64,000 nucleotides of DNA from a virus. Taxonomy: Duplodnaviria > Caudoviricetes. A model generated the notes under the pieces. It was not told the origin of the DNA. It saw only the letters and a list, made by a program, of their open reading frames with translations, and made no database searches. The translations under genes and the position numbers were made by a program. The stretch's first letter is position 1; each line of letters starts with the position of its first letter. Shown in pieces: positions 10,032-51,924 of this stretch. The stretch is taken from the IMG/VR virus record IMGVR_UViG_3300037067_026718, positions 32,001-96,000 of that record. One strand, given 5' to 3'.

Positions 10032-10220
10032 TCACTCGCTCTTAGAAAACGGAACAGTACACCAATCCGGTATCTCCGGATTCTTCTCCCGGCCTATGTC
10101 TCGGTTTTCTTTCAAGCATCTGGCCACACCTGGATGATGGGGACGACCCGGTATGTACTTATACAGCAGGCAGTCCCCACATCGCTCCAGGTAGATGACT
10201 TCGATCTCGTCACCCATCAT
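10032..10220 (-). CDS. small Cys-rich hypothetical protein
   Basis: CGDC...C...IPDWC motif; ATGA overlap with the ATPase stop. Confidence 0.55.
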   Translation of the reverse strand: MMGDEIEVIYLERCGDCLLYKYIPGRPHHPGVARCLKENRDIGREKNPEIPDWCTVPFSKSE

Positions 10221-11509
10221 TCGGAGGCTTCCTTTACTGCACCTTCCTCGATGATGATGCTGCACTCGTCTCCGGTACTTACCCGGGTGGCGATGATCTG
10301 CAGCTTCTGCTCTTCGGCCCAGGCTGCGAACTTGGCGAGCTCCTGCAGGTCGTAGCGCTCCAGCTCATCGAGCAGGATGAACCCGCACTCCGGCCGGAGT
10401 TCCTTCACGATGGCAGCGGCCGTGCTGATCTGCTCGACGCCACTCATGCAGTCCCAAGCTTTTCCGTTGTACAGCAGCTCGCCGTCAACGACCTTGAGCT
10501 CGGGAAGAGGCATGGCGGAAGACTCCAGCAGGGCGGTCTTCATGGTCCTGAGGTTCTCGATCTGCAGCTCCGCGGCCTGGCGCTCTCCCGTGGCCTCGGC
10601 ATGAAGGTCTACCAGCTCCTGATGCCTGACATTGGCCTCCACCATCTTGTTGGTCTCCTGGGCGGCATGTATCTCATTGTACAGGAGAGAGGTGTCGAAT
10701 TTCTGCTTGCCGGACAAGTCCTTGGCGAGGATGTTGATTTCATCGGACATGTCGTGCAAAGCGTCTTGCTTCTCGGAAATATCGGCCTCTATAGCGGCAA
10801 TATCGGCGTACAGCTTTTCGCGCTGCTCCTTGAGGTTGTCAATTCTGACGCTGAGAGAACGATGATCCTCCTCGACACGCTGCTTTGCGCGTTCCGACTC
10901 GGCTATTCTGGCGTTGTGTTTGTTGCCTTCCTCCATCTTGACAAGCAGATCACTGATGGATACCGGTTCACCGGGTGCATCGGGAAAGAACGGGGCTGCT
11001 TTGACCCTGGCGAGGACATCCTTTTCCCTGTTGGCGGCAGAGGCTCGCTCGGTCATGCGATATTTCTCCATGCCGTCGAGCTCGTCGATCCGGTCCTGAA
11101 CTCCGATGACCTTCAGCAACGTCCTGGCTTTGTCCGGGTTGTTCATCTGCATGAACTTCCTGGGGATCAATGCCAGCTCGTCGATGAAGGCACTCAGGAG
11201 CTCCTGGCCGGCCTTCATCCCTCTTGGGTCTCTTACTGTCAGGTCGGAGTTTTTGCCCTTCCTGATGACCTCCAGGTCATTGGAAAGTAGGATCCTGATG
11301 TAAGGGTCGGTTTCTGCTCCGTCTCGCTTGGGAGAGGATGGTTTCATGCGGTTGCTGCCAAGGGCGAAGCAGATAGCGTCCAGAATTGTAGTCTTGCCCT
11401 GCCGGTTGCCGCCTCCGATGATCGTAAGGCCGTTCTGGTTGATATCCATCTTCACCAAGGCGACCTTCTTGAAGTTTTCGATGTGGAGTTCAACTATCTT
11501 GACTGACAT
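10217..11509 (-). CDS. SbcC/RecF/SMC-like ATPase with a coiled coil
   Basis: IENFK, Walker A GGNRQGKTT, long coiled coil, signature MSGVEQ, Walker B FILLDE. Confidence 0.88.
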   Translation of the reverse strand: MSVKIVELHIENFKKVALVKMDINQNGLTIIGGGNRQGKTTILDAICFALGSNRMKPSSPKRDGAETDPYIRILLSNDLEVIRKGKNSDLTVRDPRGMKAGQELLSAFIDELALIPRKFMQMNNPDKARTLLKVIGVQDRIDELDGMEKYRMTERASAANREKDVLARVKAAPFFPDAPGEPVSISDLLVKMEEGNKHNARIAESERAKQRVEEDHRSLSVRIDNLKEQREKLYADIAAIEADISEKQDALHDMSDEINILAKDLSGKQKFDTSLLYNEIHAAQETNKMVEANVRHQELVDLHAEATGERQAAELQIENLRTMKTALLESSAMPLPELKVVDGELLYNGKAWDCMSGVEQISTAAAIVKELRPECGFILLDELERYDLQELAKFAAWAEEQKLQIIATRVSTGDECSIIIEEGAVKEASE

Positions 11510-14063: not shown

Positions 14064-15431
14064 TCAGGCCCGATGCTTTTCAAGGATCTCATCAAAGGTC
14101 ATGCCTCTGACTACTTCTTCCTGGACCTTGGCCGGCATCAGATTCGCTTCGACATGGTAGTCATCGGAAGGAAAGGCTTTACCGGGGAAGAACCTGTGCA
14201 GCATGCCGCGGAAGCATTCGTCATCAAGGTTGCCTATCTCGAGGCAGAGGTCAATGCGGCCTGGCCGCATAAGAGCGGGGTCGATGCTGTCGATGGAGTT
14301 TGCTGTCATGATGATCACTCTGCCATGAGTGGCTTCCAGACCATCGAGGACATTGAGGACAACCGAGAGTCCGGATGACGACTGCAGGTCTTCGATTAAG
14401 TCAGATGACCGGTCGACATAGTTAAACCCACCGGGCATCAGTACCTTGCCGGGGCTATCCGAAGCGCCTGCTGGACCTACTGTGTTTGGAGCGCCTTCTT
14501 TGCTGTGAGCTGCTTTGTCGGCTTCCCTCAACTGCTTCAGCAGTTCTTCCCGGGCCTGCACAGTCCAGGAAGTGTCGATGTCTTCAATGGCAACTATGCA
14601 CTTGGCTTCGGCTGTAGCCAAAGCTGTATCGACCCAGTACAACCGATGTGCAGGAAGGATATTGATGTTGCGACCGAGATAGTCGGCAATGGCCCTGACA
14701 AGAGAGGATTTTCCGGTCCCCGGAGGGCCGTACAGCATAATGCCGAGGTGCCAGGGGATACCGTGTTGTATGCACCACTGCTCAGACGACAGAAACTTGT
14801 TGATGCGGTCGAGCAGCAACTGCTTCTTGGACTCCGGCAGCACTATCGAGTCCATCGACCTGTTGGGAACATTGCCGAGATCCATCCAGTATTCGCCGTA
14901 CTTCCTTATGCACGTTCCTTCATAGGTGATGGCCGCTTTTTTACAGTCTTCGAGAAGATTGTCGAGAGGGGCATGGGAGCGGCCCAGGACACGGATGGTG
15001 AGGCGTTCCTTCTCTACATCGGTAAACGACTGGTCGATCTTCTCGAGATTGAGAACAAACGGCCTTCTTTTGAAGATGCTGCCTCTCAACGGATGCCAGA
15101 TGACATGTTGGCCGTTGCCGACTCCCTTGGTTGCTTTGTCGTCATGGCCCCAGCGTCCGTTGCGGATCTGGATGCGCCTGATCTTGGTTGAATGCCCATT
15201 TTTATCAAGCCATTTCATGAAGTCATGAAAGCTGATCTGGGCTGATGTCAGCATCATTTCAGTGGAGAAGTACCGGATGATCAGTGCGCCGATCTTTCTC
15301 GGAATGCTTCTCAGCATCAACGTGAGGATGCTCAGCAACCCGGTGATCAGCATGCCGTCGAGAAACTGATTGCCGGTGTTGGGTATGATGCCGTTGAAAG
15401 CTCTTCCTATTGAGCTCAGTATGTCGCTCAT
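14064..15431 (-). CDS. BCS1-like AAA+ ATPase with an N-terminal membrane anchor
   Basis: RSMDSIVL, GIPWHLGIMLYGPPGTGKSS, IEDID, LNVLDGL, DPALMRPGRID; N-terminal TM segment. Confidence 0.85.
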   Translation of the reverse strand: MSDILSSIGRAFNGIIPNTGNQFLDGMLITGLLSILTLMLRSIPRKIGALIIRYFSTEMMLTSAQISFHDFMKWLDKNGHSTKIRRIQIRNGRWGHDDKATKGVGNGQHVIWHPLRGSIFKRRPFVLNLEKIDQSFTDVEKERLTIRVLGRSHAPLDNLLEDCKKAAITYEGTCIRKYGEYWMDLGNVPNRSMDSIVLPESKKQLLLDRINKFLSSEQWCIQHGIPWHLGIMLYGPPGTGKSSLVRAIADYLGRNINILPAHRLYWVDTALATAEAKCIVAIEDIDTSWTVQAREELLKQLREADKAAHSKEGAPNTVGPAGASDSPGKVLMPGGFNYVDRSSDLIEDLQSSSGLSVVLNVLDGLEATHGRVIIMTANSIDSIDPALMRPGRIDLCLEIGNLDDECFRGMLHRFFPGKAFPSDDYHVEANLMPAKVQEEVVRGMTFDEILEKHRA

Positions 15432-15454
15432 GTGTTGTCACTTCCTTTGATGAA

Positions 15455-15694
15455 TCAGTCTTCTTTCCAGTTGCTGACCCATACCCGTTCGCCTCCGGGA
15501 ATCTCGACCAGCAAGTCCTCTCTTTGTTCGTTATTGAACAGACTGCCGACCATTTCGCTGGCGATCACTTTTGCGCGTGTCCAGACTTCTAAAGGGCCGT
15601 AGCCCAGATCCACGGACACATATCGCACTGGTGCTTTCATTTTTACCTTTCTGGGGTTATGGATAAACCCCTTCATTCTCGATGGAAAGCTCAA
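15455..15694 (-). CDS. hypothetical phage protein
   Basis: 79-aa ORF; start uncertain. Confidence 0.55.
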   Translation of the reverse strand: MSFPSRMKGFIHNPRKVKMKAPVRYVSVDLGYGPLEVWTRAKVIASEMVGSLFNNEQREDLLVEIPGGERVWVSNWKED

Positions 15695-25232: not shown

Positions 25233-25267
25233 AAAAGACAAAGCCCTTCGTGGAAAAACAAAGGGCT
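25233..25267 (-). terminator. intrinsic terminator of the RNAP operon
   Basis: AGCCCTTTG-loop-CGAAGGGCT followed by TTGTCTTTT. Confidence 0.55.
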
Positions 25268-25315
25268 CAGTCTCGACGCAAGAAGTTTATAACTTATTTT
25301 GCTGATATTTTCTAT

Positions 25316-26044
25316 CTAAACCCGGGGGATCCTTCGTAGATAGTTCATCGTATTTTTGCGCAGCAATGCCGAGGCCAGGGCTCCTGCTGCGGCACCAATG
25401 AGAGTAGTCCTTGCGGATAGCAAATAGTTTCTGTAAGTGGCCAATGCGGACATGCGGACTGGGCTGTTCTCGGGGACCCCGGCCCTGTTCCAGGCTTCTA
25501 CTTCCTGCCTGTACAAAGGAGTGTTTTCTGGATCCGAGAACATGGAAGATATCATCGACCGGTACTGGCCTCGTCTTTTCGTAAGAGATCCCGATTCCTT
25601 CCAGTCGCTGTAATGCCCCAGTTCATGGCGCATGACTTCATCAACCACTGGAGGCTTCACGGATATGGCTGGCTTGCCTCCCTTGACAGGAGGTTCAACA
25701 AAGAAACCGTGCCCTGGTCTTGTGGAGTTCAAAGCTTTGCGGTAGAGCATCCGCTTCAGAACATTCACGCCTGGCTGCTTGAGCCATTTGTTTATCTCTT
25801 CTTTGTTGGAAAGTACGCTGATATCTTCCGGGAATGATGTAACATCGAATTTCTTCGCTTTTCCAAATTCTCGTTCCACTTTCGACAACGCTACCAATGA
25901 GATAATCGTGTTGGCGAGCATTCCAGCCATGGATCCAGCTACTGCTCCTCCGAATATTTCCCTGCCTGGAACAGGGCCACTCGACCATCCCGCACGCTTC
26001 TCGAGCTCTATCCTGGCTGCAAGCTTGATGATGTGGTGGTTCAT
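25316..26044 (-). CDS. HEXXH zincin-like metalloprotease with a KxA leader and 2 hydrophobic helices
   Basis: MRHELGH plus downstream E (QEVEAW); leader IKLAA..EKRAG; TGATG coupling to the RNAP stop. Confidence 0.7.
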   Translation of the reverse strand: MNHHIIKLAARIELEKRAGWSSGPVPGREIFGGAVAGSMAGMLANTIISLVALSKVEREFGKAKKFDVTSFPEDISVLSNKEEINKWLKQPGVNVLKRMLYRKALNSTRPGHGFFVEPPVKGGKPAISVKPPVVDEVMRHELGHYSDWKESGSLTKRRGQYRSMISSMFSDPENTPLYRQEVEAWNRAGVPENSPVRMSALATYRNYLLSARTTLIGAAAGALASALLRKNTMNYLRRIPRV

Positions 26045-29000
26045 CAGTACTCCCCTGTTCTCCAGAGATCTCTTCCGAAGTCGATGCCTTGCAGGAACGG
26101 AGTAACTGGCTTTACTCCTTTTGAAGGACTCATGGCGCCCATGGCTGCGCTTTCCTGAAGCTGTCGAACCATGTCTCTACCCAGCATCTTGAGTGCCCAG
26201 TCAGGTTCGTTTTTTGCCAGATCGTAATCCATGCCGTCAAAGACCGGTTCGTACTTGATCAGCGCATCGCTGTCGCCTATATCCGCATTGATCGCCTGCA
26301 GCTCTTTGATGTCCTTGATGTCACCTGTCATCATGTCCTGGCTGCTGCCGGGATCCAAAACCTTGCCGTATCTCGTAAGGGCCGCCACTACTGTCTCTAT
26401 GTACCGGCGGTCTGGAGCCTTGCCGCCGTAGTTCCTTTCGATTTCGTCAACAAGGTAGTTCTGCATGGCCCTAAGGCCGTTGTATTTCATGACATCGTTG
26501 GGATCCGGAAGACCTTCATTGATCTGAAATCCGGCCTTCAGGCGATCGCCTACGGCAACCTTGAGCGGAGCATTGGTAGACGTGGTGAAAGACGTTCCGT
26601 CCTGCATGATGATTTCGTAGCCGCCGCCTCGCATCTTATTGATCTTGCCCACCACGCCGGCCTCAGGAGCAAGAGTGGCCTTCGCTCCGGCAGGGGCTCT
26701 TCCATTCAAGAGAGGCCAGATGGCATACAAGCCTTCTATTTTGTTGCTGGAAAGAGCGGAGCCTCCACCATGGAAAGCCTTCAACGTGAGCTGAACAGCC
26801 GGCTCGGTAAGGGTGTGGGCCGATATGACTCCTATGTCGGCGCCGACCTTCGGCTTCTCTCCATCCGGGAGTCTACCGAAATCCTTGGCGTAGAACCCGG
26901 TTTTTGCCACTGACGTCAAGGGAGATCTTACCATCACCGTCTTGATCTTGTTCGAACGGGCTGATGCTATCAGCTCTTCTGTTATGGGATCCCCGGCCAC
27001 GGCCAATGTTTTCCCCGCCGGGGTTACCAGGTCGAAAGCCAGGTATCTCTGAAGCACGGTGGGATGGTCAATGGGATACTCGATACCATCGGTAGGGTTT
27101 GCATCTCCGGGTGCCACTACGCTGCCCAGGGTAGACCTCAGAAGCTGCTTGCTGAAATAGCCGGGCTCCCTGACTTCAATGCTCTTCGAATGCAGAGCAG
27201 GCCGGTTGCCTTTCGATGCCACCCAGTAGTCCATGAAATCGAGTCCTTCTCCGTATCCGGTGCGGATCAGATGAGGGATAGGGCCGTCGAATCCGTTCAC
27301 CGTCATGGGAGAAAACTTGATCTGCATGACATTGGACCAATTCCCCTTGGCTCCGGAATCAGCAAGGACGGCAACTGCCGACCGAGGGTCTATTGAAGAC
27401 CTGAGCCTGGAGTAGACAGAGTCGGTTTCCTTCTGAGCCAAGAAGCCGCCAACGGACTTGGACATCTCTTCCTTGCTTATCGGCATGAAGTCCTTCAGGC
27501 TGAATGACAACCCAACCCTGGTGTTGAAGGCATTGCCCAGATCGGTGAGTTTCATCAAAGTGTTGACGTAATCCCCGGGAGCATGCTTACCCACAGCGTT
27601 GAGTATCTCGCCTATCTTCTTGTCGTTGTAGACTACATTGTAACCCTGTCTGAACTGCTCAGGAATGGCTTTGTTCACCAAAATACGACCGGCAGTGACA
27701 ACGACATTGCCTTTGTCTGTTTTGAGGGTTACTCCGTCATTGAGGGCTATTTCATTGGCTTCGTAAGCCTCTATGACTTCCCTCTCGGTGGTGTACTTCT
27801 TGTCGGGCCTCGGGTCTACGAAGTGAGTACCGTAATAGAGGCCGGCAATGGTGTCTTCCTCGGGACGCATGATCGTCTGGTCCAGCCCGGGCTTGAACAG
27901 GTTCTTGGATGGCAGCAGCTTTTCTCTGGCTTCCCTCACCGCTTCGTCGGAAACCGGGACGGAATAGCCCATTGCATCGCCATCGAAGTCGGCATTGAAG
28001 CCACGGGCTATCAAAGGACTGATCTCCATGGACTTGCCCGGTATCATCTTGGCCCAGAAAGCCATGACGTTGAACTTGTGGAGCTTGGGGTCCCTGGTGA
28101 TCATGACCGGACGATGTTTCATCTCGGCCTGCAGAGTTGCTTCAGCCAAAGCTTCCCTGTCTTCTATCATCCGCCTGGCTTCCAGAGGGGGGATGCCTTC
28201 CTTGGTCAGCCTGCGCATTACGAAAGAATGGAAGAGCGGCCATGCTGATTCTTCGGGAAGTCCGATCTCGTCTACGGACAAACCGGGATTGGGCCTGATG
28301 ACTGCACGGCCGCCAACCGACTGACGTTTGTCGAATATCTTATCCTGGAAATGCCCCCAGGAGGAAGACTCCCCCTTGAGATATTCGAGGATCCCGGTCC
28401 TCGGCTTGGCTCCGTACCCTATGCCCGTGGCCCCTATCTGGATCGCCTTTACGGCATCGTAGAGGTTCGTCCTCACTTCATCCAGTACGGAGGCCGGCAT
28501 GCTGCCCTGGCCGTCCTTGAGCGTCATGGCAAGCGTTCCTATGTCCTGGTACAGAGCTGTGAAATCACTGACCCTTATCCCGTTGTCTTTCGTGAGGTAC
28601 ACCGGTCTGAACTGCGGAGGAAGAACCGGAACCTTGGATATGACGTAAGCGTTCTCCGGTTTGATGCCGATGCGCTGCAGAGCGTTCAGGTACCGCAATT
28701 TCTTGACCATGGCATCCTTGGCAGTACCGGTGTGATTGGGGATCATCTCCTTCAAAGACTTGATGGAAGACTCTACGTCAATGGACGAAAGCATGGCTTT
28801 GAAAGCATGGCCACCGGTGATGGACTTGTCCCCCTTTACCCGGGGAGCCAGTACTCCGTCTTTGTACCCTACCCTGCCGGCGATGATGTCATCATAGGCG
28901 CCCTGCGTCAGGCCCAGGATGGCTCTGATAGCCTTTTCGTAAACCGGGTTGGGAAGAGGCTCCGCCAGGGAGATATGCCCCCATTTGTCTCCCTGCATGC

Positions 29001-32000
29001 CTCCAAGAAGCTTTTCATCGTAGAGGCCGCCTTCGTATGACTGCAACATCTCGTATTTACCGGGACGCCCGATCCGGGTGGCCATCGCTGGATTGGGTAT
29101 TTCGCCCGAACTCATCCTGTCGACTTCTCTGTCGGTGAGAGGCAAAAGCTGGTAATTGTCGCCTTGCTTGCGGACATCAATGCCGGCGCCTTTGAGTAGT
29201 GCCTGCAACTTTTTGAACGCAAAGGTCATCTGGGGCGATGGAATGTTGCTGCCTTCCTCAACGGCCCTCCAGAAATCATCGTTCTTCTCGCTCTTGGTGG
29301 TCGCTATCTCCCGCAGGTTGCTCGTGGCTCCATGGGCCAACAGAGCGTAGAATCCCAGGCCTCCCATCTTGGGTCCCTTAATGGGGCGCTGGCTGACTAT
29401 GTCGTAAGGATCGCTTCTGTTGCGAACATTGAAGTACGGCTCGGCCTCCTGCTTCTGCCGGGTAAAGTACTGATACCCGGTCATTACCTTGATGGGCCTG
29501 TCACCATCCTTGATGGGATTGCCGTCCTTGTCGTAGATCTCTTCCTGGTCTTCAAGACCGTATTCCTTCATTTTCTTGTATACGGCCTCCGGAGAGCTCC
29601 CCTTCAGGTTGAAAAGCTCCACAATGAAAGGTATACCGGTGTGGGCGGCTATCTTCGAAGCTGCGGCCTCGATTACCTGGCCGGTGTTGTTCCTTGAGGT
29701 GACGGCGGCCGGGTTCTGAAGAATGTCGAACGGCTGACCACTTTTGTCATGAGGCATTTCATCGTCGGGAAGGATCGCAGATACGACGCCCTTCGCCTGA
29801 TGACGATTGGAATTGCCAGTCCAGCATGCCTTCCCGTTGCGACGGACATACATCACATGGTTGGGAACAGTGCAGCAATACACCAGGCCGTCGTAATCAA
29901 CCAGTTTTTCCTCCTGGATGTGCTGTGACTTTGTATGGCCATGGTTGACCATGGGCTCAGTTTTCTTCCTGATAACAGAAACCCTGTATCGATCGGCATG
30001 GGCTTCATTGTCATCCCTAAGGCACGGAGTTACATTGGCAGCCATCCCGGCTTTCAATGCTATTTCCTGAACGTCATCAGCCAAGCGCTTACTCGTAGTG
30101 GAGTAACTCACACATGAAAAACTGGAGCCGTCGCAAGAAAGCAGTGCATCCAAAAGAATATTCATCTGCCTCTGCGACAACTCCATGAACTCCCTGGGGA
30201 CATACTTGTCGTTGGCGTGTCCGAGTACCGATAGATACTCATTGAGCTGCCTTGAGGATATGATGATTTTGCCTTCCCTGGGATTGTACGGCCACTTCAT
30301 TCTATCAAGGCATGCTGTGATTCTGTGGTAGACGTAACCACCATACGAATTCTTTGTTGTTTTATTCTTATTGATAGTTACGTAATATCCATCTTTCGAG
30401 AAATGGCCATCAGCTATGTAATACCCCAGGAATTCCAGCCAGTCATCCATGGCTACTTCAGGAAGCCCATGGGGGCTGAAGCCATGATGACGGCCATCCA
30501 CAGTCAGCAGGCAAAACTCTGATGCTTCCTTACCTATCCAAGTTCCATTCTTCTTGTACTGGACTCGTCGGCCCATAATATCCTGAGCCTGATGCAAGGC
30601 GAATGATTGAGCTCTCCGCGTTTTGACCAGCATGTTGTGATTGAGAGTCGTCAGCAAGTCGATCTGCTGAGACCGGATGCCATACATTTTTCCGGTGTGC
30701 CAATAGGAGAACACAGCCTCTGGATGCTGGTATTCCACAATTCCGGTATCCTGGTTGAGCGTGCATACCTGCTCATTAACGGTGAGATCAGAAACCGGGA
30801 TCCAACCCCTCTGGGTAAGGTATTCGTGGTCATCTGAAAGACACAGCTTATCCCCTGTCTTTACCGACCGCTCCGACCGCACGAAAATCTTGATCCCGGT
30901 GGGAGTACGGACTATTCTTTCGACGACGCCCGGGTCGCTGGCTTCCCAGACCTTGTCATCCCTGATCAGTTGCTGCTTCATTACCTGGCTCACATTGCCT
31001 GCCAGGATATCCTCCTGGGTCAAGCTTTTGGGGGTGAGCTTGAGGATGATAGGGTCACCGGTGTTCAACACGGTGCCTTCTTTGACAACTCCGTCATCAT
31101 CTATGTTGTCGAGCTGCATGGCCCGGTACTCTTTGGGATAGAGGGCCTTGAACCTGTTCTTATTGAAAACGTCATGCTTCCTGGAGCTGGCTTCCACCTG
31201 GTCTACGTGGATGGCTTTCATCTTCTCGGCAGCGCTCTCGGATATCAGCAGGCCGTCCATGAAGTTCCAGCCCTTGTATGGAAGAAAGGCCACTCTGAGA
31301 TTGCGCCCCATAGCCAGCATGCCGTTCCTGATGAAACTGTTGGTGGCGACTGCCTGCCCCTTCTTTACTATTTCACCCGCCTTTACAACGGGTATTTCAT
31401 GGATGACATTGCCTCCGTTGAGAGGGTAGTTTGTGTAAAGCTCTATGTCTTCGGTATCGCCGGTCTTGATGTCGCGCAGGGTGATGGAGTCCTTCTTCAC
31501 CTTCACGACTTCGCAATCGCCCATGTAAGAAGGAACGCGCCGAGAGAATCGGTTGCCGAACTCTTGTTCCGCGGTGAAGACGGATCCATCCGCGTTTTTG
31601 TGAACCCCGGCCAATACCAAGGGGTTTTCCGGCTCTGCAAGCATGAGAGCATGTGTGCTTTGCTTGACGGACATAGTGCTTCTTGTAGGAATGTTGTTGG
31701 GAAGGAATGGGATCAAAAGGCTTGCCCAGTCAAAAGCATGGTGGGGGGAGGCTATGACGTAATCGATCTTCGAGTATGGAACCTCAACTATCTCGCCGTG
31801 ATGCAATGCCTTTACCTTGGCCTTGTTGGGAAGGTACACCCCGGTTTCGCGCATGCTGTACTCACCAGGAATGGCGGTGTACTTGTCGTATATCTCCCGG
31901 GGGGTAACCGCCTTTGTTCCGGATTGCTTGCCCGTGGTGAAATCGAGAACGGAAGCCTTGAGCTCCCTCCCCACCTTCCGGGCGCCGGACGACAGATGCA

Positions 32001-33222
32001 TGTTGACACCAACTCGGTCAGTGGTCGGCGTGAAGATGGGATCGATGAACCCCATGGAGCTGTCATTCAGCTCTCTCATGCCTTCCGTGATGGCATAGGA
32101 GGAGCCCACACCGCCTTCGCCCATCTGAGTGACCTCAGTGGCATCAGAGAGGATCCCTATTGGATTTATCTGTTCGGGGTTGTAGACGACATCAGCCTGA
32201 ACGAACTTGCTGCTCATCAGCTTCCGGATCTCAGAAAGTGGCCTGGCCAGAATGTCTTTCTCGTCATACTGGTTGCTGTCCACCCTGTAGGCCAGCTTGT
32301 TCTTTATCTTGTTTGCCTGGTTCTCGATGCCGTAAAGGATGAGATCGTTGTATCCATAGATGTCCTGGAAATGCAGATCATCCCTGTTGTCAGGCTTCAC
32401 TGTGCCGGCGCTGACGTCCAGCATCTTTCGGGTGGCATCCATCAAAGCATGGCGGTCTGCAGCCTTGTATTCCTTGCCCAGAGTTACTTTGGACACCCAT
32501 GGGTCAAGAACGGTGGTTTCAAAAGCAGCCTTGAGCTGATCGGCCTTCTCGTTCGAATTTCTTGCTGTTCCTGTGTAGCTGAGCATCGTGCTGTACAAAC
32601 GCTCAAGCACGGAGCTATGGGTAGAAGGAGAGCGGAAGTTGGCCCTGTAGATCTGCTCACCCCATTGTTTCTGTATCTGCTCATCGGGAACGCCCAGTAT
32701 CCTCAGTACGGAATAAGCCGGAAAAGCCTTTCCTCCTACATCAAACCTGATTCTCATGGTCTCGGGATCGTAGTTGATCTTGATGTTCTGCCGTGTCTTG
32801 GTATTGATGAAAGCCTGCACGCCATCAGCCTGTTTGGTAACGTATATCCCCGGGGAAAGCCGCAACTGCTTCTTGACAGATACTTCGGACCCTTCCACAA
32901 CGAAAGTCCCCCTGGCTGTCGGGAAAGGCAGTCTGAACAGGATTTTGCCGGCGCTTCTCTTCTTCTCATTACCGCGCTCGTCGGTCATGACAATGTCGGC
33001 CCTTATCGGTATGGAATAGCTTGAGTCTCTTTCTCGGGCCGCTCTCTCGAGCGCAGGGTTGACCAGTTTGTCGGGAAGGTCGAACTTGATGTTCTCAATT
33101 CGTATTCCCCGCAACTTTCCCTGGTAAGAAAGGATCTGGGGCAGTCTTTCCCGGAGGCTCGAAAGCAGAGTGACGTAGTCTCGGTAGACATCTATTCGAT
33201 GCAGATTTTCATCAATACGCAT
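26044..33222 (-). CDS. rpoBC: single-chain fused DNA-directed RNA polymerase beta-beta' (intein-containing)
   Basis: Beta motifs GTFVVEG..QLRLSPG, EQINP..GEGG, LIPFL, MGRNLRVAF, GDKL/SNRHQAKG, NP..TSR.N.GQ; beta' motifs GHISL, VPVLPPQFRP, RDPKLH, NADFDGD (27976-27996), SGAKG, bridge helix and trigger loop QLTLKAFHGGG. Confidence 0.96.
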   Translation of the reverse strand: MRIDENLHRIDVYRDYVTLLSSLRERLPQILSYQGKLRGIRIENIKFDLPDKLVNPALERAARERDSSYSIPIRADIVMTDERGNEKKRSAGKILFRLPFPTARGTFVVEGSEVSVKKQLRLSPGIYVTKQADGVQAFINTKTRQNIKINYDPETMRIRFDVGGKAFPAYSVLRILGVPDEQIQKQWGEQIYRANFRSPSTHSSVLERLYSTMLSYTGTARNSNEKADQLKAAFETTVLDPWVSKVTLGKEYKAADRHALMDATRKMLDVSAGTVKPDNRDDLHFQDIYGYNDLILYGIENQANKIKNKLAYRVDSNQYDEKDILARPLSEIRKLMSSKFVQADVVYNPEQINPIGILSDATEVTQMGEGGVGSSYAITEGMRELNDSSMGFIDPIFTPTTDRVGVNMHLSSGARKVGRELKASVLDFTTGKQSGTKAVTPREIYDKYTAIPGEYSMRETGVYLPNKAKVKALHHGEIVEVPYSKIDYVIASPHHAFDWASLLIPFLPNNIPTRSTMSVKQSTHALMLAEPENPLVLAGVHKNADGSVFTAEQEFGNRFSRRVPSYMGDCEVVKVKKDSITLRDIKTGDTEDIELYTNYPLNGGNVIHEIPVVKAGEIVKKGQAVATNSFIRNGMLAMGRNLRVAFLPYKGWNFMDGLLISESAAEKMKAIHVDQVEASSRKHDVFNKNRFKALYPKEYRAMQLDNIDDDGVVKEGTVLNTGDPIILKLTPKSLTQEDILAGNVSQVMKQQLIRDDKVWEASDPGVVERIVRTPTGIKIFVRSERSVKTGDKLCLSDDHEYLTQRGWIPVSDLTVNEQVCTLNQDTGIVEYQHPEAVFSYWHTGKMYGIRSQQIDLLTTLNHNMLVKTRRAQSFALHQAQDIMGRRVQYKKNGTWIGKEASEFCLLTVDGRHHGFSPHGLPEVAMDDWLEFLGYYIADGHFSKDGYYVTINKNKTTKNSYGGYVYHRITACLDRMKWPYNPREGKIIISSRQLNEYLSVLGHANDKYVPREFMELSQRQMNILLDALLSCDGSSFSCVSYSTTSKRLADDVQEIALKAGMAANVTPCLRDDNEAHADRYRVSVIRKKTEPMVNHGHTKSQHIQEEKLVDYDGLVYCCTVPNHVMYVRRNGKACWTGNSNRHQAKGVVSAILPDDEMPHDKSGQPFDILQNPAAVTSRNNTGQVIEAAASKIAAHTGIPFIVELFNLKGSSPEAVYKKMKEYGLEDQEEIYDKDGNPIKDGDRPIKVMTGYQYFTRQKQEAEPYFNVRNRSDPYDIVSQRPIKGPKMGGLGFYALLAHGATSNLREIATTKSEKNDDFWRAVEEGSNIPSPQMTFAFKKLQALLKGAGIDVRKQGDNYQLLPLTDREVDRMSSGEIPNPAMATRIGRPGKYEMLQSYEGGLYDEKLLGGMQGDKWGHISLAEPLPNPVYEKAIRAILGLTQGAYDDIIAGRVGYKDGVLAPRVKGDKSITGGHAFKAMLSSIDVESSIKSLKEMIPNHTGTAKDAMVKKLRYLNALQRIGIKPENAYVISKVPVLPPQFRPVYLTKDNGIRVSDFTALYQDIGTLAMTLKDGQGSMPASVLDEVRTNLYDAVKAIQIGATGIGYGAKPRTGILEYLKGESSSWGHFQDKIFDKRQSVGGRAVIRPNPGLSVDEIGLPEESAWPLFHSFVMRRLTKEGIPPLEARRMIEDREALAEATLQAEMKHRPVMITRDPKLHKFNVMAFWAKMIPGKSMEISPLIARGFNADFDGDAMGYSVPVSDEAVREAREKLLPSKNLFKPGLDQTIMRPEEDTIAGLYYGTHFVDPRPDKKYTTEREVIEAYEANEIALNDGVTLKTDKGNVVVTAGRILVNKAIPEQFRQGYNVVYNDKKIGEILNAVGKHAPGDYVNTLMKLTDLGNAFNTRVGLSFSLKDFMPISKEEMSKSVGGFLAQKETDSVYSRLRSSIDPRSAVAVLADSGAKGNWSNVMQIKFSPMTVNGFDGPIPHLIRTGYGEGLDFMDYWVASKGNRPALHSKSIEVREPGYFSKQLLRSTLGSVVAPGDANPTDGIEYPIDHPTVLQRYLAFDLVTPAGKTLAVAGDPITEELIASARSNKIKTVMVRSPLTSVAKTGFYAKDFGRLPDGEKPKVGADIGVISAHTLTEPAVQLTLKAFHGGGSALSSNKIEGLYAIWPLLNGRAPAGAKATLAPEAGVVGKINKMRGGGYEIIMQDGTSFTTSTNAPLKVAVGDRLKAGFQINEGLPDPNDVMKYNGLRAMQNYLVDEIERNYGGKAPDRRYIETVVAALTRYGKVLDPGSSQDMMTGDIKDIKELQAINADIGDSDALIKYEPVFDGMDYDLAKNEPDWALKMLGRDMVRQLQESAAMGAMSPSKGVKPVTPFLQGIDFGRDLWRTGEY
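29812..30843 (-). mobile_element. intein with LAGLIDADG homing endonuclease (344 aa) in the RNAP beta moiety
   Basis: C1 CLSDDHEYLT, block B TTLNH, LEFLGYYIADG and LLDALLSCDG, block F VYCCTVPNH, C-terminal WTGN/S; removal restores GDKL-SNRHQAKG. Confidence 0.93.
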
Positions 33223-33236
33223 TGGTGGCCTTTTCC

Positions 33237-33875
33237 TTAATGAGCTTTCCTGCGAGGCAGCTCGGGGGACATAAGCTCTGCTGATGTTCTCGTGGCCTGA
33301 CTTGGTTTATTGATGCATTCGTAAATATCAGGAAGGTTGGCCCAGATGCATGGCGGAGTCTTTTCAAACGGAATGATCTCGGAAGAGACGGCATTGATGG
33401 CAGCATCCAGAGGGCCATCGGCTGCTTCTACGGCTGCACGCGCTCCCGTAGAGCATACGTAGTGATTCCTGCCAAACCCGAAAATCCTGGTGCCTAAGTC
33501 CATGTCTACAAGCTCGCCAAGATCATAAAGCATGCCTGAGTGTTTGAGGCAGAAAGCATAGAGAGGCTCGGGGTTCAGTGGTCCTTTCTTCTTGCGATAG
33601 ACCAGGGCATAGCTGGGATCCACAAGGTCATCGGTGATCTCGCATGGAGTGGAGCATGGATCGGTCCAATGGAATCCTGTGACTATCCCATGGATCTTGT
33701 CTTCTATGACTCGGTTGTGTGTGGCATGGGGGAATACGCAATTTTCGCCCAGCACTCTCTGGCTGTATTTTCTGACTCTCCAGTTGAAAAACTTCTTGAC
33801 GAAATTCCACCATTCAGGCTTTTTGTAGCTGACGATGATATCGCCTGGCCTTAGATCTGAAACAGTGAAAGGCAT
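33237..33875 (-). CDS. permuted papain-like amidase/peptidase (YaeF/YiiX, NlpC/P60 superfamily)
   Basis: LRPGDIIV, ATH, GMLYD and YVCST (His before Cys, the permuted order). Confidence 0.72.
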   Translation of the reverse strand: MPFTVSDLRPGDIIVSYKKPEWWNFVKKFFNWRVRKYSQRVLGENCVFPHATHNRVIEDKIHGIVTGFHWTDPCSTPCEITDDLVDPSYALVYRKKKGPLNPEPLYAFCLKHSGMLYDLGELVDMDLGTRIFGFGRNHYVCSTGARAAVEAADGPLDAAINAVSSEIIPFEKTPPCIWANLPDIYECINKPSQATRTSAELMSPELPRRKAH

Positions 33876-33903
33876 AACGAAGCTCCTCTCTGTTGCTAAG
33901 ATG

Positions 33904-33931
33904 ATTATACCCGAATACGGGTTCCACGCAA
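33904..33931 (-). promoter_or_regulatory. sigma-70-type promoter, 16-bp spacer
   Basis: TTGCGT-N16-TATAAT upstream of the papain-like/RNAP operon. Confidence 0.7.
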
Positions 33932-33932
33932 G

Positions 33933-33959
33933 AGAAAGGCCCCGCTCGTGCGGGGCCTT
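33933..33959 (-). terminator. intrinsic terminator
   Basis: AAGGCCCCGC-ACGA-GCGGGGCCTT followed by TCTCTT. Confidence 0.65.
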
Positions 33960-33982
33960 GCCTCACCATCGGCGTATATGCG

Positions 33983-36487
33983 TTACTGGCCCAGGTTGGC
34001 CCAGAAGGACGCTACCTTCTCGACGTCGCCACCTGTGGCTGCCATGAGCTTGTTGTTGACCCTCTCGGCCACCTTCTCGAAGAACAGGGCTTCCTTGGCG
34101 GCAGCGATCTTCTCGAGCATGGGGTTGTGGTCCTGGGCTTCCAGAAGGGCTGCGAGCTTCTGAAGGGAAGCTTCCCTCTGGGAGAGGGCTCCACCGGCGA
34201 AACCGGCGCCACCGATTCCGAGGGCCGCGAGGAGGGCCGGAACCTTGAGGTTGCGTTTGCCACCGATGCCAGCGATACCCTTGCTGCCACCGATGCGGGA
34301 CATCAGCTCAGCGAGGGCCGGCTTCTGCTTGCCCTTCAGAAGGGGAAGAAGGGCGGCGAGGGGACTGGCCTTTGCCCAACCGGGCATGGCTCCATAGCCC
34401 TTGGCTGCCGCGGAACCGAGGCCCTTGGCTGCCGAACCGATGCCCTTGGCGGCTGTACCGAGAGCCTTCTTGTCGGTGTTGTAGATCCACTTGGCTGCAC
34501 CGGTGTTGGCGCCCATGATGGCCTTGAGGGCCTTCATGAGGCCGTTGTCGCTCTTGCCGCGACCAAGCAGGCTGGCGAGGTTGGGGGCTGCGCTTTTTTC
34601 CATCATCTCACTGATCTGAATGATGGCTGCGATCTTCTCGGACTTCGTCATTTCTGTTCCTTCCATCAGTGCTGCAATTTTCTGCAGGCTTGCCGTTCTG
34701 TCTCTGTTCAAGTAAGCCGCGGTACCCAAGCCACCCAGACCAAGGGCGGCTATGCCCGATTCTACTGGACGGTTACGCATGTAACCAAGGACGCTTTCTC
34801 CTCCTCTTCCGATTCCCCTCATGGCCTTCCCGGGGATTCCAGCGAGGTCTCCCAGAAGTTCACGGATAACCTCTCTGTTCTTTTTCCTTCTGGCTTCTTT
34901 CGCCAAGTCCACCTTGGAAAAAAGGCCTCCAAGCAATGTCTTGGGGAAAATCTTACGGTTGAGCCTGTAGTTACTCCTGAGAAAAGCGGCCTTGTTCATC
35001 GTATCATCCCTTTCCAACGAAGAGTTTTTCTTGATGGCGCTTCCTATGCCATACCCTGTTCCAACCAACCCTATGCCAGCAAGAGCCGCCGGCAGTCTGA
35101 GATCTCTCTGTGCGCCTACTCCCAGCAGCCCTCTGCGGCCCTTGAGCGACCGAAGTACTCCTTCGATACCGGCAGGCTGCAACTTCATCGCCAAGCTGCC
35201 AAGGCCTTGGTTGAAGCGCCTCCAAGGCATCAGGCGACCGAACATGATGGCCTGGGCGATGGCGTCGTGGTTGGTTGTTTTGGCCTTGATGGCACCGATG
35301 GCCTGACGAGTATTTTCTCCACCCTTACCAAGCCCCATATTGCCACCGAAGCTCTTCAAGGCGTTGATGAAATCTTTCCCTGAAGTAAGCGTGTCTGCAA
35401 AACCCTTGGGAAGAAGCCGCTGCACGAGTCTAGTATTCAGAAGTCTCATCCCAATATTCGATGCAAAACCGGCCTCTTTCAACATCGAGGCGGTCCTTTC
35501 GGGAAAGACATACGCTGGCCGTCTCTCGCGCCGGCGTGTATTGGCAAGTCCAAAGGCCAGTCCGCCAACTCCCAGACCTGCTGCGGCCAATGCAGCCGGA
35601 GTCATGAGATTCCTTCTGGCGCCGTAGCCCATGATGCCTTCGCTGCCTCCGAGCCTGTGAGCAATGCCGGTCAAGCCTCTGGGATTTGCAAAGGCGCCGA
35701 TGCCGAGGTTCTTCATGAGGTTGATGAACTTCAGGGGATTGATGCCCTTGGTTACCCCCATGTACGTGTTGATTGTCTTGAACAACTTGTAGAACTGTTC
35801 TGCAGTCATGCCGGACTGGGCTGCTGGAGCACTGGCAGCCGCCGGGGCAGCCGCCGCTACTGTTGCTCCTTTTCCACCAAAAAAGCGTTTGATCGCCGGC
35901 CAGACGGCATCCATCCGCCCAGCCTCTTTGATCAAGGCATGTCTGAGCGATGCCTTCTTGAACCTGCTGGGGGCCCAGGCGGCTGCCAGCGCAGCAGTCA
36001 AGTCTGGCGGTTTTTGGTGAAGCCTCTTTATAATATCATCCGAATTTGTAAGATCAAGACGAGGTGAATTTCTTCGACTTTTAATGGAATCGTAAGCTCG
36101 CTGAATCAAAGCTTCTCTATCAGCAGTTGCTGCTTTTCCACGCCAGCCACCAAAAAAGCGATTTAAGGCATCCATCCATCCGGCCTCTTTGACCAAAGCA
36201 AGTCTGAGCGATGCCGGCTTGAACTTGGGATCATCATTTACGGCAACCTGACTGACGGGCGGCGTGACAGGGGTATTGAGCGCAGCCATGAAAGAAGAAG
36301 CCGGTCCTCCCTTTCCGCCAGTGACGGAATTGGCAGCCTGTCTCCCTGCGGTCTGAAAGGTATTCAACGGAAACTTGTACTTGGGACCTGGGACACTTGA
36401 TATGGCATCAAGAGTCGGCTGAGCTGCCGAGCTCATTTTGGCCAGTTCCACCAACGCTGCCAATTTTCTGCGCTTCATACTGGTCAT
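33983..36487 (-). CDS. Gly/Ala/Lys-rich modular polyprotein with many KxA motifs (putative internal virion protein)
   Basis: 834 aa; repeated KEAG/KIAA/KLAA/KVAS motifs separating cationic amphipathic modules that end in Gly-rich hydrophobic helices. Confidence 0.75.
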   Translation of the reverse strand: MTSMKRRKLAALVELAKMSSAAQPTLDAISSVPGPKYKFPLNTFQTAGRQAANSVTGGKGGPASSFMAALNTPVTPPVSQVAVNDDPKFKPASLRLALVKEAGWMDALNRFFGGWRGKAATADREALIQRAYDSIKSRRNSPRLDLTNSDDIIKRLHQKPPDLTAALAAAWAPSRFKKASLRHALIKEAGRMDAVWPAIKRFFGGKGATVAAAAPAAASAPAAQSGMTAEQFYKLFKTINTYMGVTKGINPLKFINLMKNLGIGAFANPRGLTGIAHRLGGSEGIMGYGARRNLMTPAALAAAGLGVGGLAFGLANTRRRERRPAYVFPERTASMLKEAGFASNIGMRLLNTRLVQRLLPKGFADTLTSGKDFINALKSFGGNMGLGKGGENTRQAIGAIKAKTTNHDAIAQAIMFGRLMPWRRFNQGLGSLAMKLQPAGIEGVLRSLKGRRGLLGVGAQRDLRLPAALAGIGLVGTGYGIGSAIKKNSSLERDDTMNKAAFLRSNYRLNRKIFPKTLLGGLFSKVDLAKEARRKKNREVIRELLGDLAGIPGKAMRGIGRGGESVLGYMRNRPVESGIAALGLGGLGTAAYLNRDRTASLQKIAALMEGTEMTKSEKIAAIIQISEMMEKSAAPNLASLLGRGKSDNGLMKALKAIMGANTGAAKWIYNTDKKALGTAAKGIGSAAKGLGSAAAKGYGAMPGWAKASPLAALLPLLKGKQKPALAELMSRIGGSKGIAGIGGKRNLKVPALLAALGIGGAGFAGGALSQREASLQKLAALLEAQDHNPMLEKIAAAKEALFFEKVAERVNNKLMAATGGDVEKVASFWANLGQ
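35874..36224. repeat. intragenic direct repeat (two copies, period 261 nt)
   Basis: ggcatccatcc..cc.gcctctttga.caa.gca.gtctgagcgatgcc..cttgaac at about 35874-35963 and 36147-36224. Confidence 0.75.
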
Positions 36488-36525
36488 ATGAAAGATTCCT
36501 TTCGGATGATTACTCTCTATCCACT

Positions 36526-36553
36526 ATTGTACCGCAAAACGCGAAGAACGCAA
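36526..36553 (-). promoter_or_regulatory. sigma-70-type promoter, 16-bp spacer
   Basis: TTGCGT-N16-TACAAT upstream of the polyprotein. Confidence 0.7.
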
Positions 36554-36602: not shown

Positions 36603-36633
36603 AAAAAAATAAAAAGGGGCGATGCCGCCCCTT
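36603..36633 (-). terminator. intrinsic terminator
   Basis: AAGGGGCG-GCAT-CGCCCCTT followed by TTTATTTTTTT. Confidence 0.8.
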
Positions 36634-36761
36634 CGTTTTTTACCACTTCAAGTATTTTCCAGTGGCTTTGCAGAAAGGCTGAAGGTGTCCCATCCCGCCT
36701 GCCTTCATTCCTTTCCCCGCCACGAGCAAGAAGATTATCTTGAAGACACGAAAAACTACCT

Positions 36762-50563: not shown

Positions 50564-50942
50564 GGGTGGAACTCCCTTCTTCATCCGTTTTCATGCGTTC
50601 TACAGTACCGGGGGCAGTTGATGCTTTCCTTGCTTTGTTTTTTGCTTCTGCTATTTCGATAGCCCTGTCCCTCAGGGGAATATGGTGGTTCTTGTTTGCA
50701 GGATCAAAGGCTAATTTCTGCTTGAAGGGTCGTAATTCTGTCAAGGCTTTGGTCATGGTTCTCATGTTTCTGGATTCATGTGCGGCTGTGATCCTGGCCA
50801 TCATCCTGTCGAGAGTACGATCGTCGGGGAAGTGGTACTTGGCCCCAAGATAAGAAATGGTTTTCAGCTTCTTGACCATGCGGGGTGATGCCGTAACAGT
50901 CAAGTAAGCTTCGTCCTGGCTAACAAGGGATCTTTTGGACAT
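50550..50942 (-). CDS. hypothetical basic protein
   Basis: 130-aa ORF, AAAGGA RBS. Confidence 0.6.
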   Translation of the reverse strand: MSKRSLVSQDEAYLTVTASPRMVKKLKTISYLGAKYHFPDDRTLDRMMARITAAHESRNMRTMTKALTELRPFKQKLAFDPANKNHHIPLRDRAIEIAEAKNKARKASTAPGTVERMKTDEEGSSTHGLE

Positions 50943-51924
50943 CTTCGTTCCTTTCTTTTATTTCTTCTTTTATCGGGTATAAATATAATGGACCAAGAAT
51001 CACCTTGGGCCTCATACAGAAGGAGAACATCATGATGGATCCTAGCCTGGAAGACACCGACTTCGGTTTTGATACCGAAGAAATAGAGGACTTCTGGGAC
51101 TCAGAAAGCTCAGAATCCCAGTAAGCGCCGCGTCTTTTGGGGGGGTCTTGTGCCGCAAGGCCCTCCCTCACCCTCGATTCGGCCTTGCCCAGGATCTGTC
51201 TGATTCTTTCTCTGGACAGATTGAGAACATGGCCTATCTCTCGTAAAGTGTGCCTGTGGCACTGCAGACCATGGCGCCGACAAAACACATCTTTTTCCCT
51301 GGCCGGAAGACCAGATACGATCGCCATGATTTTGTCCATCATGATCCCATCGGCTATCTCGTCTTCTCCGGACTGACATGAAACCACTTCATCGTTGTAT
51401 TCCTCGTACTGCAGACAGCTCACCGCGCTGTTGATCCTATTCATGTCGAGATTGAGGTCCGCTGCCAAGCCAAGGTAGTCTACATCCTCCATGGTTCTCT
51501 GCATGAGTTCAGCACTGAGCTGCCTGACAAAATCGATCTGGTAGAGAGTCCCGGGAGGAACATAAGCACAGGTGCTGGTAGTCCTGATGTACTTGTTGAT
51601 CCTCTGCTTTGCCCATTTTTTGGCGTACGTAGCAAACTTCGTGCCTCTGTCCGGGTCGAAACGGGACGCTGCTTCATAGTACCCGTCGATACCGCAGGAT
51701 ATGATGTCTTCAAAACAAATCGGAGGCTTGATGTAGTACTCCTGAGCGCAGGCGATGAAAAGGTATCTGAGATTGGCCATGACCAGTTTATTTTTAGCTT
51801 CAGCCACATCGTTGGGATTGTCTGAGGACTGAATGATGACTCCCAGCCGATGTTCTTCTTCCCTCGTTATGGGAACGGCTTCCGCAAGCATTCCTCTGTA
51901 ACTGTCAGGGATGAATGGCTTCAT
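50920..51924 (-). CDS. RNA polymerase sigma-70 family factor (RpoD/RpoS-like regions 1.2-4)
   Basis: ITREEE, KLVMANLR, RFDPDRGTKFATYA..W, LPAREK...TLREIG..LNLSRERIRQI. Confidence 0.93.
   Translation of the reverse strand: MKPFIPDSYRGMLAEAVPITREEEHRLGVIIQSSDNPNDVAEAKNKLVMANLRYLFIACAQEYYIKPPICFEDIISCGIDGYYEAASRFDPDRGTKFATYAKKWAKQRINKYIRTTSTCAYVPPGTLYQIDFVRQLSAELMQRTMEDVDYLGLAADLNLDMNRINSAVSCLQYEEYNDEVVSCQSGEDEIADGIMMDKIMAIVSGLPAREKDVFCRRHGLQCHRHTLREIGHVLNLSRERIRQILGKAESRVREGLAAQDPPKRRGAYWDSELSESQKSSISSVSKPKSVSSRLGSIMMFSFCMRPKVILGPLYLYPIKEEIKERNEDVQKIPC

Follow-up and report, generated by a model that had tools for sequence, protein, structure and literature searches.

The locus considered here raises the question of whether a tailed phage might package its own RNA polymerase (RNAP) and deliver it to the host together with membrane-active peptides. 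It occupies positions 25316-36553 of a 64,000-nucleotide (nt) stretch, hereafter the window, and contains genes for an 834-amino-acid (aa) basic protein, a 212-aa protein modelled as a permuted papain fold, a 2392-aa RNAP and a 242-aa protein bearing a HELGH motif. The window corresponds to bases 32001-96000 of a 157,672-bp contig (C3) from an uncultured tailed phage. The analyses described below show the locus to consist of two late-type transcription units of a phage in a lineage that encodes a bacterial-type multisubunit RNAP. The best-supported reading is that the virion genes and the RNAP operon share a regulon and that two genes of the capsid-cargo type flank the operon. Packaging of the RNAP itself is possible, the chances, as judged by analogy with other phages, being close to evenly balanced. 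The relevant features, in the order in which they would be transcribed and followed by two from elsewhere in the window, are these:

36613-36634, minus strand: terminator-like hairpin with a long U tract, closing the upstream unit (-16 kcal/mol, z -3.2)
36526-36553, minus strand: promoter-like CTTGCGT-N16-TACAAT, 39 nt 5' of the 834-aa gene
33983-36487, minus strand: gene for the 834-aa basic protein (P0003)
33938-33957, minus strand: 8-bp GC hairpin 3' of the 834-aa gene, abutting the next promoter (-26 kcal/mol, z -4.5)
33904-33931, minus strand: promoter-like (C)TTGCGT-N16-TATAAT of the three-gene operon
33237-33875, minus strand: gene for the 212-aa YiiX/C92-type protein with a predicted permuted papain fold (P0002)
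26044-33222, minus strand: gene for the 2392-aa single-chain beta-beta' RNAP (P0004)
29812-30843, minus strand: 344-aa LAGLIDADG intein, RNAP residues 794-1137
25316-26044, minus strand: gene for the 242-aa HELGH protein (P0001)
25241-25268, minus strand: terminator-like hairpin closing the operon (-23 kcal/mol, z -6.2)
50920-51924, minus strand: phage RpoD/RpoS-like sigma factor, regions 2 and 4
52350-54452, minus strand: portal protein gene (E 5e-35 to the portal of Salmonella phage Arash), 19 kb upstream of the RNAP gene

The first unit consists of the 834-aa gene alone, and the second of the putative amidase gene, the RNAP gene and the HELGH-protein gene, which are tightly packed in a single, translationally coupled message. 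The gap between the 212-aa gene and the RNAP gene is 14 nt, and the RNAP stop codon overlaps the ATG of the HELGH-protein gene in the sequence TGATG, with a Shine-Dalgarno-like GGGGAG stretch upstream. An earlier reading of the letters alone (the sequence-only reading) had described the three-gene operon, its promoter at 33904-33931, the TGATG coupling and the terminator, all of which were recovered. It had also placed an 834-aa cationic protein under a near-identical promoter, and this too was borne out, the protein having a pI of 10.7 and its gene being preceded by the element at 36526-36553. Neither promoter was listed by a stricter sigma-70 scan, because the -35 element matches at 3 of 6 positions.

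The generalized pattern TTGNNN-N16-TANAAT was found at 11 sites on the coding strand and at none on the opposite strand, as compared with 1.3 ± 1.0 in shuffled sequences. All 11 sites fall within the right-hand two thirds of the genome, between window positions 33904 and ~109578, and they precede the RNAP operon, the 834-aa gene, a gene for a 1180-aa structural protein, small genes tagged with the leader described below, and others. None was found in the ~57 kb downstream of the operon terminator (C3 1-57300). The standard sigma-70 scan of that block returned 7 sites, below the expected 12.4 ± 3.7, in agreement with the sequence-only reading's description of the block as promoter-poor. A k-mer search of the block for a phage-specific promoter recovered the ribosome-binding site only, and no other shared motif was found there. 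It is apparent that the promoter class of the RNAP operon is restricted to that part of the genome which holds the virion, cargo and replication genes. Because of this confinement, the operon is likely to be co-expressed with the virion genes.

A second line of evidence concerns the two genes that flank the RNAP operon's enzymes, and sequence comparisons support a tie between their products and the proteins of the head module, through a common leader or a K-x-A signature. The leader is a 16-residue motif, I/V-I-K-L-A-A-x-I-x-L-E-K-R/E-A-G, which opens the HELGH protein and two small terminase-adjacent proteins and is internal in two further proteins. Its 7 occurrences, against 0.8 in shuffles, uphold the claim that the HELGH protein shares the leader of head-module proteins. 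The leaders of the HELGH protein and of a 131-aa protein are identical at 13 of 17 residues; because 8 of those 13 are specified by different codons, it is the peptide itself that is conserved. Neither the leader nor a K-x-A enrichment was found in the RNAP, the amidase or either of the two sigma factors. Among the leader-tagged terminase-adjacent genes there is also a stand-alone InPase (PF18823, E 1e-58) with a leader-like N-terminus, at L004:17195-17875 (C3 129195-129875). The InPase domain is otherwise known from injected polyvalent proteins.

The 834-aa protein has 125 K+R against 54 D+E, is Gly/Ala-rich and is predicted to be disordered; its ESM Atlas model has a pLDDT of 0.40. It is built of four modules in tandem, every one of which contains a hydrophobic Gly-zipper segment (module i-E 1e-26 to 1e-29), and carries at least 6 leader-like motifs. 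The K-x-A motif occurs at 20 of its 68 lysines (p 0.004), an enrichment otherwise seen in only a few head-module proteins. A hidden Markov model made from the module matched none outside the 834-aa protein itself. On the evidence of its sequence, the protein is probably a capsid cargo or ejection protein cut by a protease. A sister phage (157,477-bp contig from a drinking-water metagenome) has kept the entire locus at ~96% identity, and in its homologue ~86 residues are absent exactly between two copies of the leader-like motif, which fits a modular, motif-delimited build. At the nucleotide level, the 304 nt at window 35963-36268 are replaced by 46 nt, with the loss of one module, and a second small replacement lies at window 25315-25334, the 3' end of the HELGH-protein gene.

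In the HELGH protein, the leader (residues 5-20) is followed by a hydrophobic helix (30-56), a soluble part with the HELGH motif (140-144), a C-terminal Gly-zipper and a basic tail. The sequence-only reading had called this a HEXXH protease with two hydrophobic helices. One helix, that at 30-56, is clear, but the second proved to be a weaker Gly-zipper stretch at 212-229; likewise, the motif is present, but no zincin family is matched. No peptidase-family match was obtained in Pfam, PHROGs or NCBIfam, and homologues were found only inside the protein's own 90% cluster. Its ESM Atlas model weakly resembles the SprT, M78 and M48 clusters (TM 0.28-0.34). Identification as a zincin protease is a guess at the level of the motif.

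The RNAP is a fused beta-beta' multisubunit enzyme of the cellular type. Its beta domains (Rpb2_3, Rpb2_6, Rpb2_7) are followed by the beta' domains (Rpb1_1 to Rpb1_5), the Pfam values being 2.9e-41 for Rpb2_6, 5.5e-19 for Rpb1_2 and 5e-11 for Rpb1_5; the NCBIfam matches are to rpoC (1.6e-117) and rpoB (2e-70), and the NADFDGD catalytic loop is present in beta'. Both the fused nature of the chain and its intein had escaped the sequence-only reading, and the analogy it drew with the RNAPs of N4 and crAss-like phages fails, given that the enzyme is of the sigma-type, fused beta-beta' kind. P0004 is the sole RNAP on the phage contig. Two sigma factors are encoded in the same genome, and the one at 50920-51924 is, from its sequence, the likely partner of the RNAP. 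Searches yielded 955 RNAP homologues; among the 120 listed, most are fused chains of 1769-3966 aa on contigs of up to ~210 kb, and many carry inteins. No propeptide-like N-terminal extension was seen in the relatives. Scans of IMG/VR using the RNAP alone gave no match. Vibrio phage D69, Salmonella phage Arash and Yersinia phage YerA41 are among the deposited relatives (25-30% identity), and all belong to the multisubunit-RNAP-encoding Caudovirales (mReC) lineage (Weinheimer and Aylward 2020, PMC7481178). What the sequence-only reading put forward as an undescribed system is mostly a sound annotation of this lineage, described in 2020.

The intein begins with Cys794 and ends with Asn1137, has Ser at +1, and interrupts a conserved beta motif behind GDKL, so that its removal rejoins GDKL with NRHQAKG. 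When ten RNAPs were aligned, an insertion of exactly 344 aa was present at the same site in the 3 closest and in none of the other 7. LAGLIDADG_3 matched above its cut-off (2.1e-5) and Intein_splicing below its own (3.4e-4). The penultimate residue is Gly (the intein ends Gly-Asn), not His; the penultimate His is absent from some active inteins. The spliced RNAP chain would be ~2,048 aa long. A second LAGLIDADG intein resides outside the window in an 894-aa structural-module protein, a homologue of Arash gp222 (L004:12148-14832; C3 124148-126832). That protein is K-x-A-enriched (11 of 58 lysines). Its profile matches were to intein entries only, and a role as the head protease was not confirmed.

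The 212-aa protein P0002 matched no Pfam, PHROG or NCBIfam model. An exhaustive search provided 56 relatives, and aligning 51 sequences revealed no variation at His53, Tyr117, Cys141 or Pro175; two extra cysteines are also invariant, and the invariant Cys sits in a Cys-Ser pair. PF05708 (Peptidase_C92) matches 4 of the 51 aligned members, with a best value of 2.4e-4 and all under the curated cut-off. An AlphaFold2 (AF2) model from this alignment reached a pLDDT of 87.4; a 5-sequence alignment had given 36. The solved structures most similar to the model by Foldseek were 3kw0 and E. coli YiiX (2if6), with probability 1.00 and TM 0.51-0.56, followed by LRAT-type enzymes. The best matches in a viral structure library were annotated C92 permuted papain-like amidases, including poxvirus OPG091. 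The model assigns P0002 to the permuted papain fold of the YiiX/C92 type, in which the catalytic His precedes the Cys, and marks it as a putative amidase; as far as the fold is concerned, the sequence-only call of a permuted papain-like enzyme was correct. No match was returned when the amidase alignments were run against IMG/VR and the metagenome and genome collections.

Conservation of the gene order was assessed in 80 metagenomic loci with RNAP relatives (29-47% identity, 10-kb flanks). No sequence homologue of any of the three neighbours was found in these 80 loci, nor was any of the three matched in deposited phages. Of the 96 non-redundant immediate neighbours, Peptidase_C92 is matched by 1 and a zincin family by 0; Gp5-type spike domains, helicases and transposases occur more often. 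The sequence-only reading had itself named a lack of conservation beside RNAP homologues as evidence against its proposal, and this is largely what was observed. An analogous trio is present in one lineage only (L016/L017, RNAP 44% identical): the first gene encodes a Gly-zipper protein whose N-terminus is leader-like, the next a protein resembling C92 (Pfam E 1.7e-5), and these are followed by the RNAP gene and then by one for an HExGH protein with a Gly-zipper. Only short motifs aligned when the L016 HExGH protein was compared directly with the HELGH protein, or the L016 C92 protein with the P0002 profile.

Relatives of the amidase and the RNAP occur on the same contig in three cases (157,477, 16,104 and 55,012 bp; contigs paired on equal length in bp). 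The four-gene cluster is probably also kept in the 16-kb contig, and in the 55,012-bp contig (G001:C14) ~24 kb separate the RNAP gene from the amidase homologue. Of the 53 loci with enough sequence, 37 have a portal homologue upstream of the RNAP gene and in the same orientation, often within 300 bp. The portal-RNAP distance in the relatives ranges from 33 to 8516 bp, as against 19 kb here. In the four closest lineages (L012/L013, L016 and G001:C14), small leader-tagged Gly-zipper genes directly adjoin the RNAP gene. A crude screen of uncurated open reading frames (ORFs) classed 64 of 735 near RNAP homologues as Gly-zipper-like, against 5 of 152 in the proteome of this phage. We infer that the four genes represent a lineage-specific neighbourhood and not a conserved machine.

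Two of these loci merit separate description. At G001:C14:19100-24600 (L107), where the RNAP is 44% identical, at least five small genes just 3' of the RNAP share a different leader, M-K/N-T-P-L-L-D-G-I-x-K-x-A, again ending in K-x-A; one bearer is a 71-aa Gly-zipper peptide. In L013, IS605 OrfB/TnpB-type genes are found within ~6 kb upstream and ~500 bp downstream of the RNAP gene (1074-2333 and 14190-15533), with disruption of the gene that comes next after the RNAP in L012, a locus identical in other respects.

Taken together, these data are best explained, as a whole, by a scheme in which observed anatomy is combined with several proposed steps, and to which we attach a moderate degree of confidence. 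The RNAP operon would be switched on together with the virion genes. The intein would splice out before the RNAP becomes active, and the enzyme would then be directed by the phage-encoded sigma factors to promoters of the TTGnnn-N16-TAnAAT class. The 834-aa and HELGH proteins would be loaded into the prohead, where the head protease would trim both, and on infection they would be released as basic, membrane-inserting Gly-zipper pieces. The C92 amidase would be an untagged accessory enzyme. Since the operon would be switched on with the virion genes, the RNAP may also reach the particles, by a leader-independent route.

Particle proteomes of related phages bear on this last step. Of all proteins detected in Arash particles, the RNAP subunit gp206 yielded the largest number of spectra, and a sigma factor was also detected (PMC10585845); RNAP and sigma were likewise detected in YerA41 particles (PMC7354516). 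By analogy, these proteomes are no more than suggestive of packaging in the phage studied here. Several observations weigh against the scheme, of course. The RNAP has no leader, and K-x-A occurs at 11 of its 170 lysines (p 0.73) and at 0 of 13 in the amidase; if loading is signalled by the leader, the RNAP makes no use of that signal. The head protease was not identified among the candidates examined. The promoters look sigma-70-like, and host RNAP could therefore read them early. The Arash proteome comprises 116 proteins, including ribonucleotide reductase, and its authors raise the carry-over of abundant proteins (PMC10585845). Finally, the RNAP genes of YerA41 were classed as early (PMC7354516).

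The last three of these points are accommodated by the strongest alternative, namely that the RNAP is not a virion protein. Host RNAP would read the sigma-70-like promoters and make the phage RNAP and sigma factors, which would then take over, including in the block that lacks such promoters; the adjacency to cargo genes would reflect mosaic gene order and have no functional meaning. The -10 elements of the promoters are indeed perfect or nearly so, and their -35 elements contain TTG; the absence of a leader or K-x-A signature on the RNAP, together with the poor conservation of its neighbours, would be expected under this explanation. It is countered by the use of the same promoter class for genes that are clearly structural or encode cargo, which are unlikely to be early, and by the position of the RNAP gene in most relatives, just downstream of the portal gene and beside spike or cargo genes. 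The constant 16-nt spacer, moreover, suggests a dedicated sigma factor. We regard this explanation as unlikely, though it deserves serious consideration.

Less probable still is the full model of the sequence-only reading, according to which RNAP produced late is packed into the particle and ejected alongside membrane-active peptides, the papain-like and HEXXH proteins process or activate it, and the injected enzyme transcribes the promoter-poor downstream block. The model draws on the late-type promoter class that the RNAP operon has in common with the virion genes and that is absent from the ~57 kb downstream, on the phage having a single RNAP, on the listing of RNAP and sigma in Arash and YerA41 particles, on the translational coupling of the RNAP to a leader-tagged protein, and on the gene order of L016/L017. 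It is opposed by the untagged state of both the RNAP and the amidase, by the failure to find homologues of the three neighbours in the 80 loci, by the counts of 1 in 96 for C92 and 0 in 96 for zincins among immediate neighbours, and by the distance between amidase homologue and RNAP in G001:C14. The HELGH protein matches no peptidase family, the RNAP N-terminus in relatives has no propeptide-like extension, and nothing links either flanking protein to RNAP processing. We consider it just as doubtful that a tailed phage here packages a conventional sigma-dependent single-chain RNAP, delivered through or with Gly-zipper peptides cut by the head protease from the 834-aa precursor, with a leader-tagged membrane metallopeptidase and the C92 amidase as accessories, for host-independent immediate-early transcription of a ~57-kb block without sigma-70-like promoters.

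That the 834-aa and HELGH proteins instead act in the membrane of the infected cell (in lysis, superinfection exclusion or as an envelope anchor), the motif being an amphipathic targeting helix unrelated to the capsid, is very improbable: their Gly-zipper hydrophobic segments, high pI and weak Gly-zipper_YMGG match would suit such a role, and their cleavage is inferred, not direct, but the motif is common to small terminase-clustered proteins and to an InPase-domain protein of the injected-polyvalent-protein kind, it also occurs internally, at module borders, and K-x-A enrichment is common to the 834-aa protein and a few head-module proteins.

The source phage has a unit of ~149 kb, as deduced from the recurrence of the first 4.7 kb of the contig at position 149,068, and nearly all of its genes are on the minus strand. 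C3 1-4696 is repeated at 149068-153766 with 98.4% identity, not 100%, beyond which there are patchy blocks of 90-95%; what this end repeat resembles is the joining of two strain variants across a genome that is circular or has terminal redundancy, rather than a clean terminal repeat. The contig sits within a binned assembly of 4.85 Mb and carries tailed-phage hallmarks, namely a large terminase, a baseplate wedge, the Arash-like portal and the two sigma factors. The stretch is present in public metagenomes from groundwater, which is its probable source, and from landfill and drinking water; none of these runs is recorded as RNA. The left ~57 kb (C3 1-57300) encodes a C5 methylase, a Thg1-like enzyme, an S1-domain protein, DUF5131 and AAA/SMC-like ATPases. 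ARAGORN called an 89-nt tRNA-Ile (GAU) at window 10311-10399 (minus strand), within the 3' part of a 430-aa SMC/AAA_23-like ORF at 10217-11509; either one of the two calls is wrong, or the overlap is real.

If the RNAP is packaged, as the favoured scheme allows, it would represent a third route by which phages transcribe early genes without the host, independent of those of the N4 type and the crAss/phiKZ type. This route would use a near-cellular beta-beta' enzyme with a sigma factor, in a lineage that would be abundant in metagenomes from groundwater, landfill and sludge. As an experimental system the locus is compact, combining a single-chain RNAP of ~2,050 aa whose activity would depend on intein splicing, candidate cognate sigma factors and a promoter class whose spacer is fixed at 16 nt. 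The 834-aa protein provides a natural test case for modular, leader-delimited capsid cargo.

Each component of the locus may be compared with known systems. Beta and beta' are joined in the same order as in the fused rpoBC of Helicobacter and Wolbachia (NF007172, NF011417). Those proteins, however, are cellular and ~2,840-2,890 aa long, whereas the spliced phage chain would be ~2,048 aa and scores 388 as against 5372 bits, far below the equivalog cut-off. P0002 resembles the YiiX/YaeF amidases (PF05708; 2if6, 3kw0; poxvirus G6R/OPG091), a family frequent in phages and giant viruses, in its predicted fold, its permuted order of His then Cys, and its invariant His and Cys-Ser; it differs in matching no Pfam model and in its two extra invariant cysteines.

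In phage T4, a capsid-targeting sequence is present on the internal proteins IPI-III and on Alt and is removed by the prohead protease gp21. Similarly, a short N-terminal leader is shared here by unrelated, often basic proteins encoded near head genes, and its end motif recurs at presumed cleavage sites. Unlike that of T4, the leader ends in K-x-A-G and also occurs internally, as a module border in the 834-aa protein; cleavage and loading are putative.

N4, crAss-like phages and phiKZ established the concept of a phage RNAP that is produced late, travels in the particle and, once injected, transcribes the early genes. The N4 gp50 is a T7-like single-subunit enzyme. The crAss gp66 is a highly divergent two-barrel enzyme within a giant multidomain protein, and crAss RNAP polyproteins carry peptidase-like domains. 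The phiKZ virion RNAP (vRNAP) has four or five chains and no sigma factor and exists alongside a second, non-virion RNAP. The virion RNAPs taken for comparison are N4 gp50, crAss-like phi14:2 gp66 and phiKZ vRNAP (see also PMC7824862 and PMC7598289). In contrast to these, the present system, known from genes alone, has one conventional beta-beta' chain, two sigma factors and separate neighbouring genes.

The closest correspondence is with the mReC phages. There, the RNAP gene is found among structural genes, just after the portal gene, and the RNAP genes of Arash lie inside the structural module. The phage described here differs in that its RNAP is only 25-30% identical to those of Arash, YerA41 and D69, and in the 19 kb that separate its portal and RNAP genes. 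The RNAP of Arash and D69 is split into proteins of 1525 aa and ~606 aa, whereas here it is one intein-bearing chain. Like the mReC phages, however, it is a tailed phage in the 140-190 kb range that combines a bacterial-type beta/beta' RNAP with phage sigma factors.

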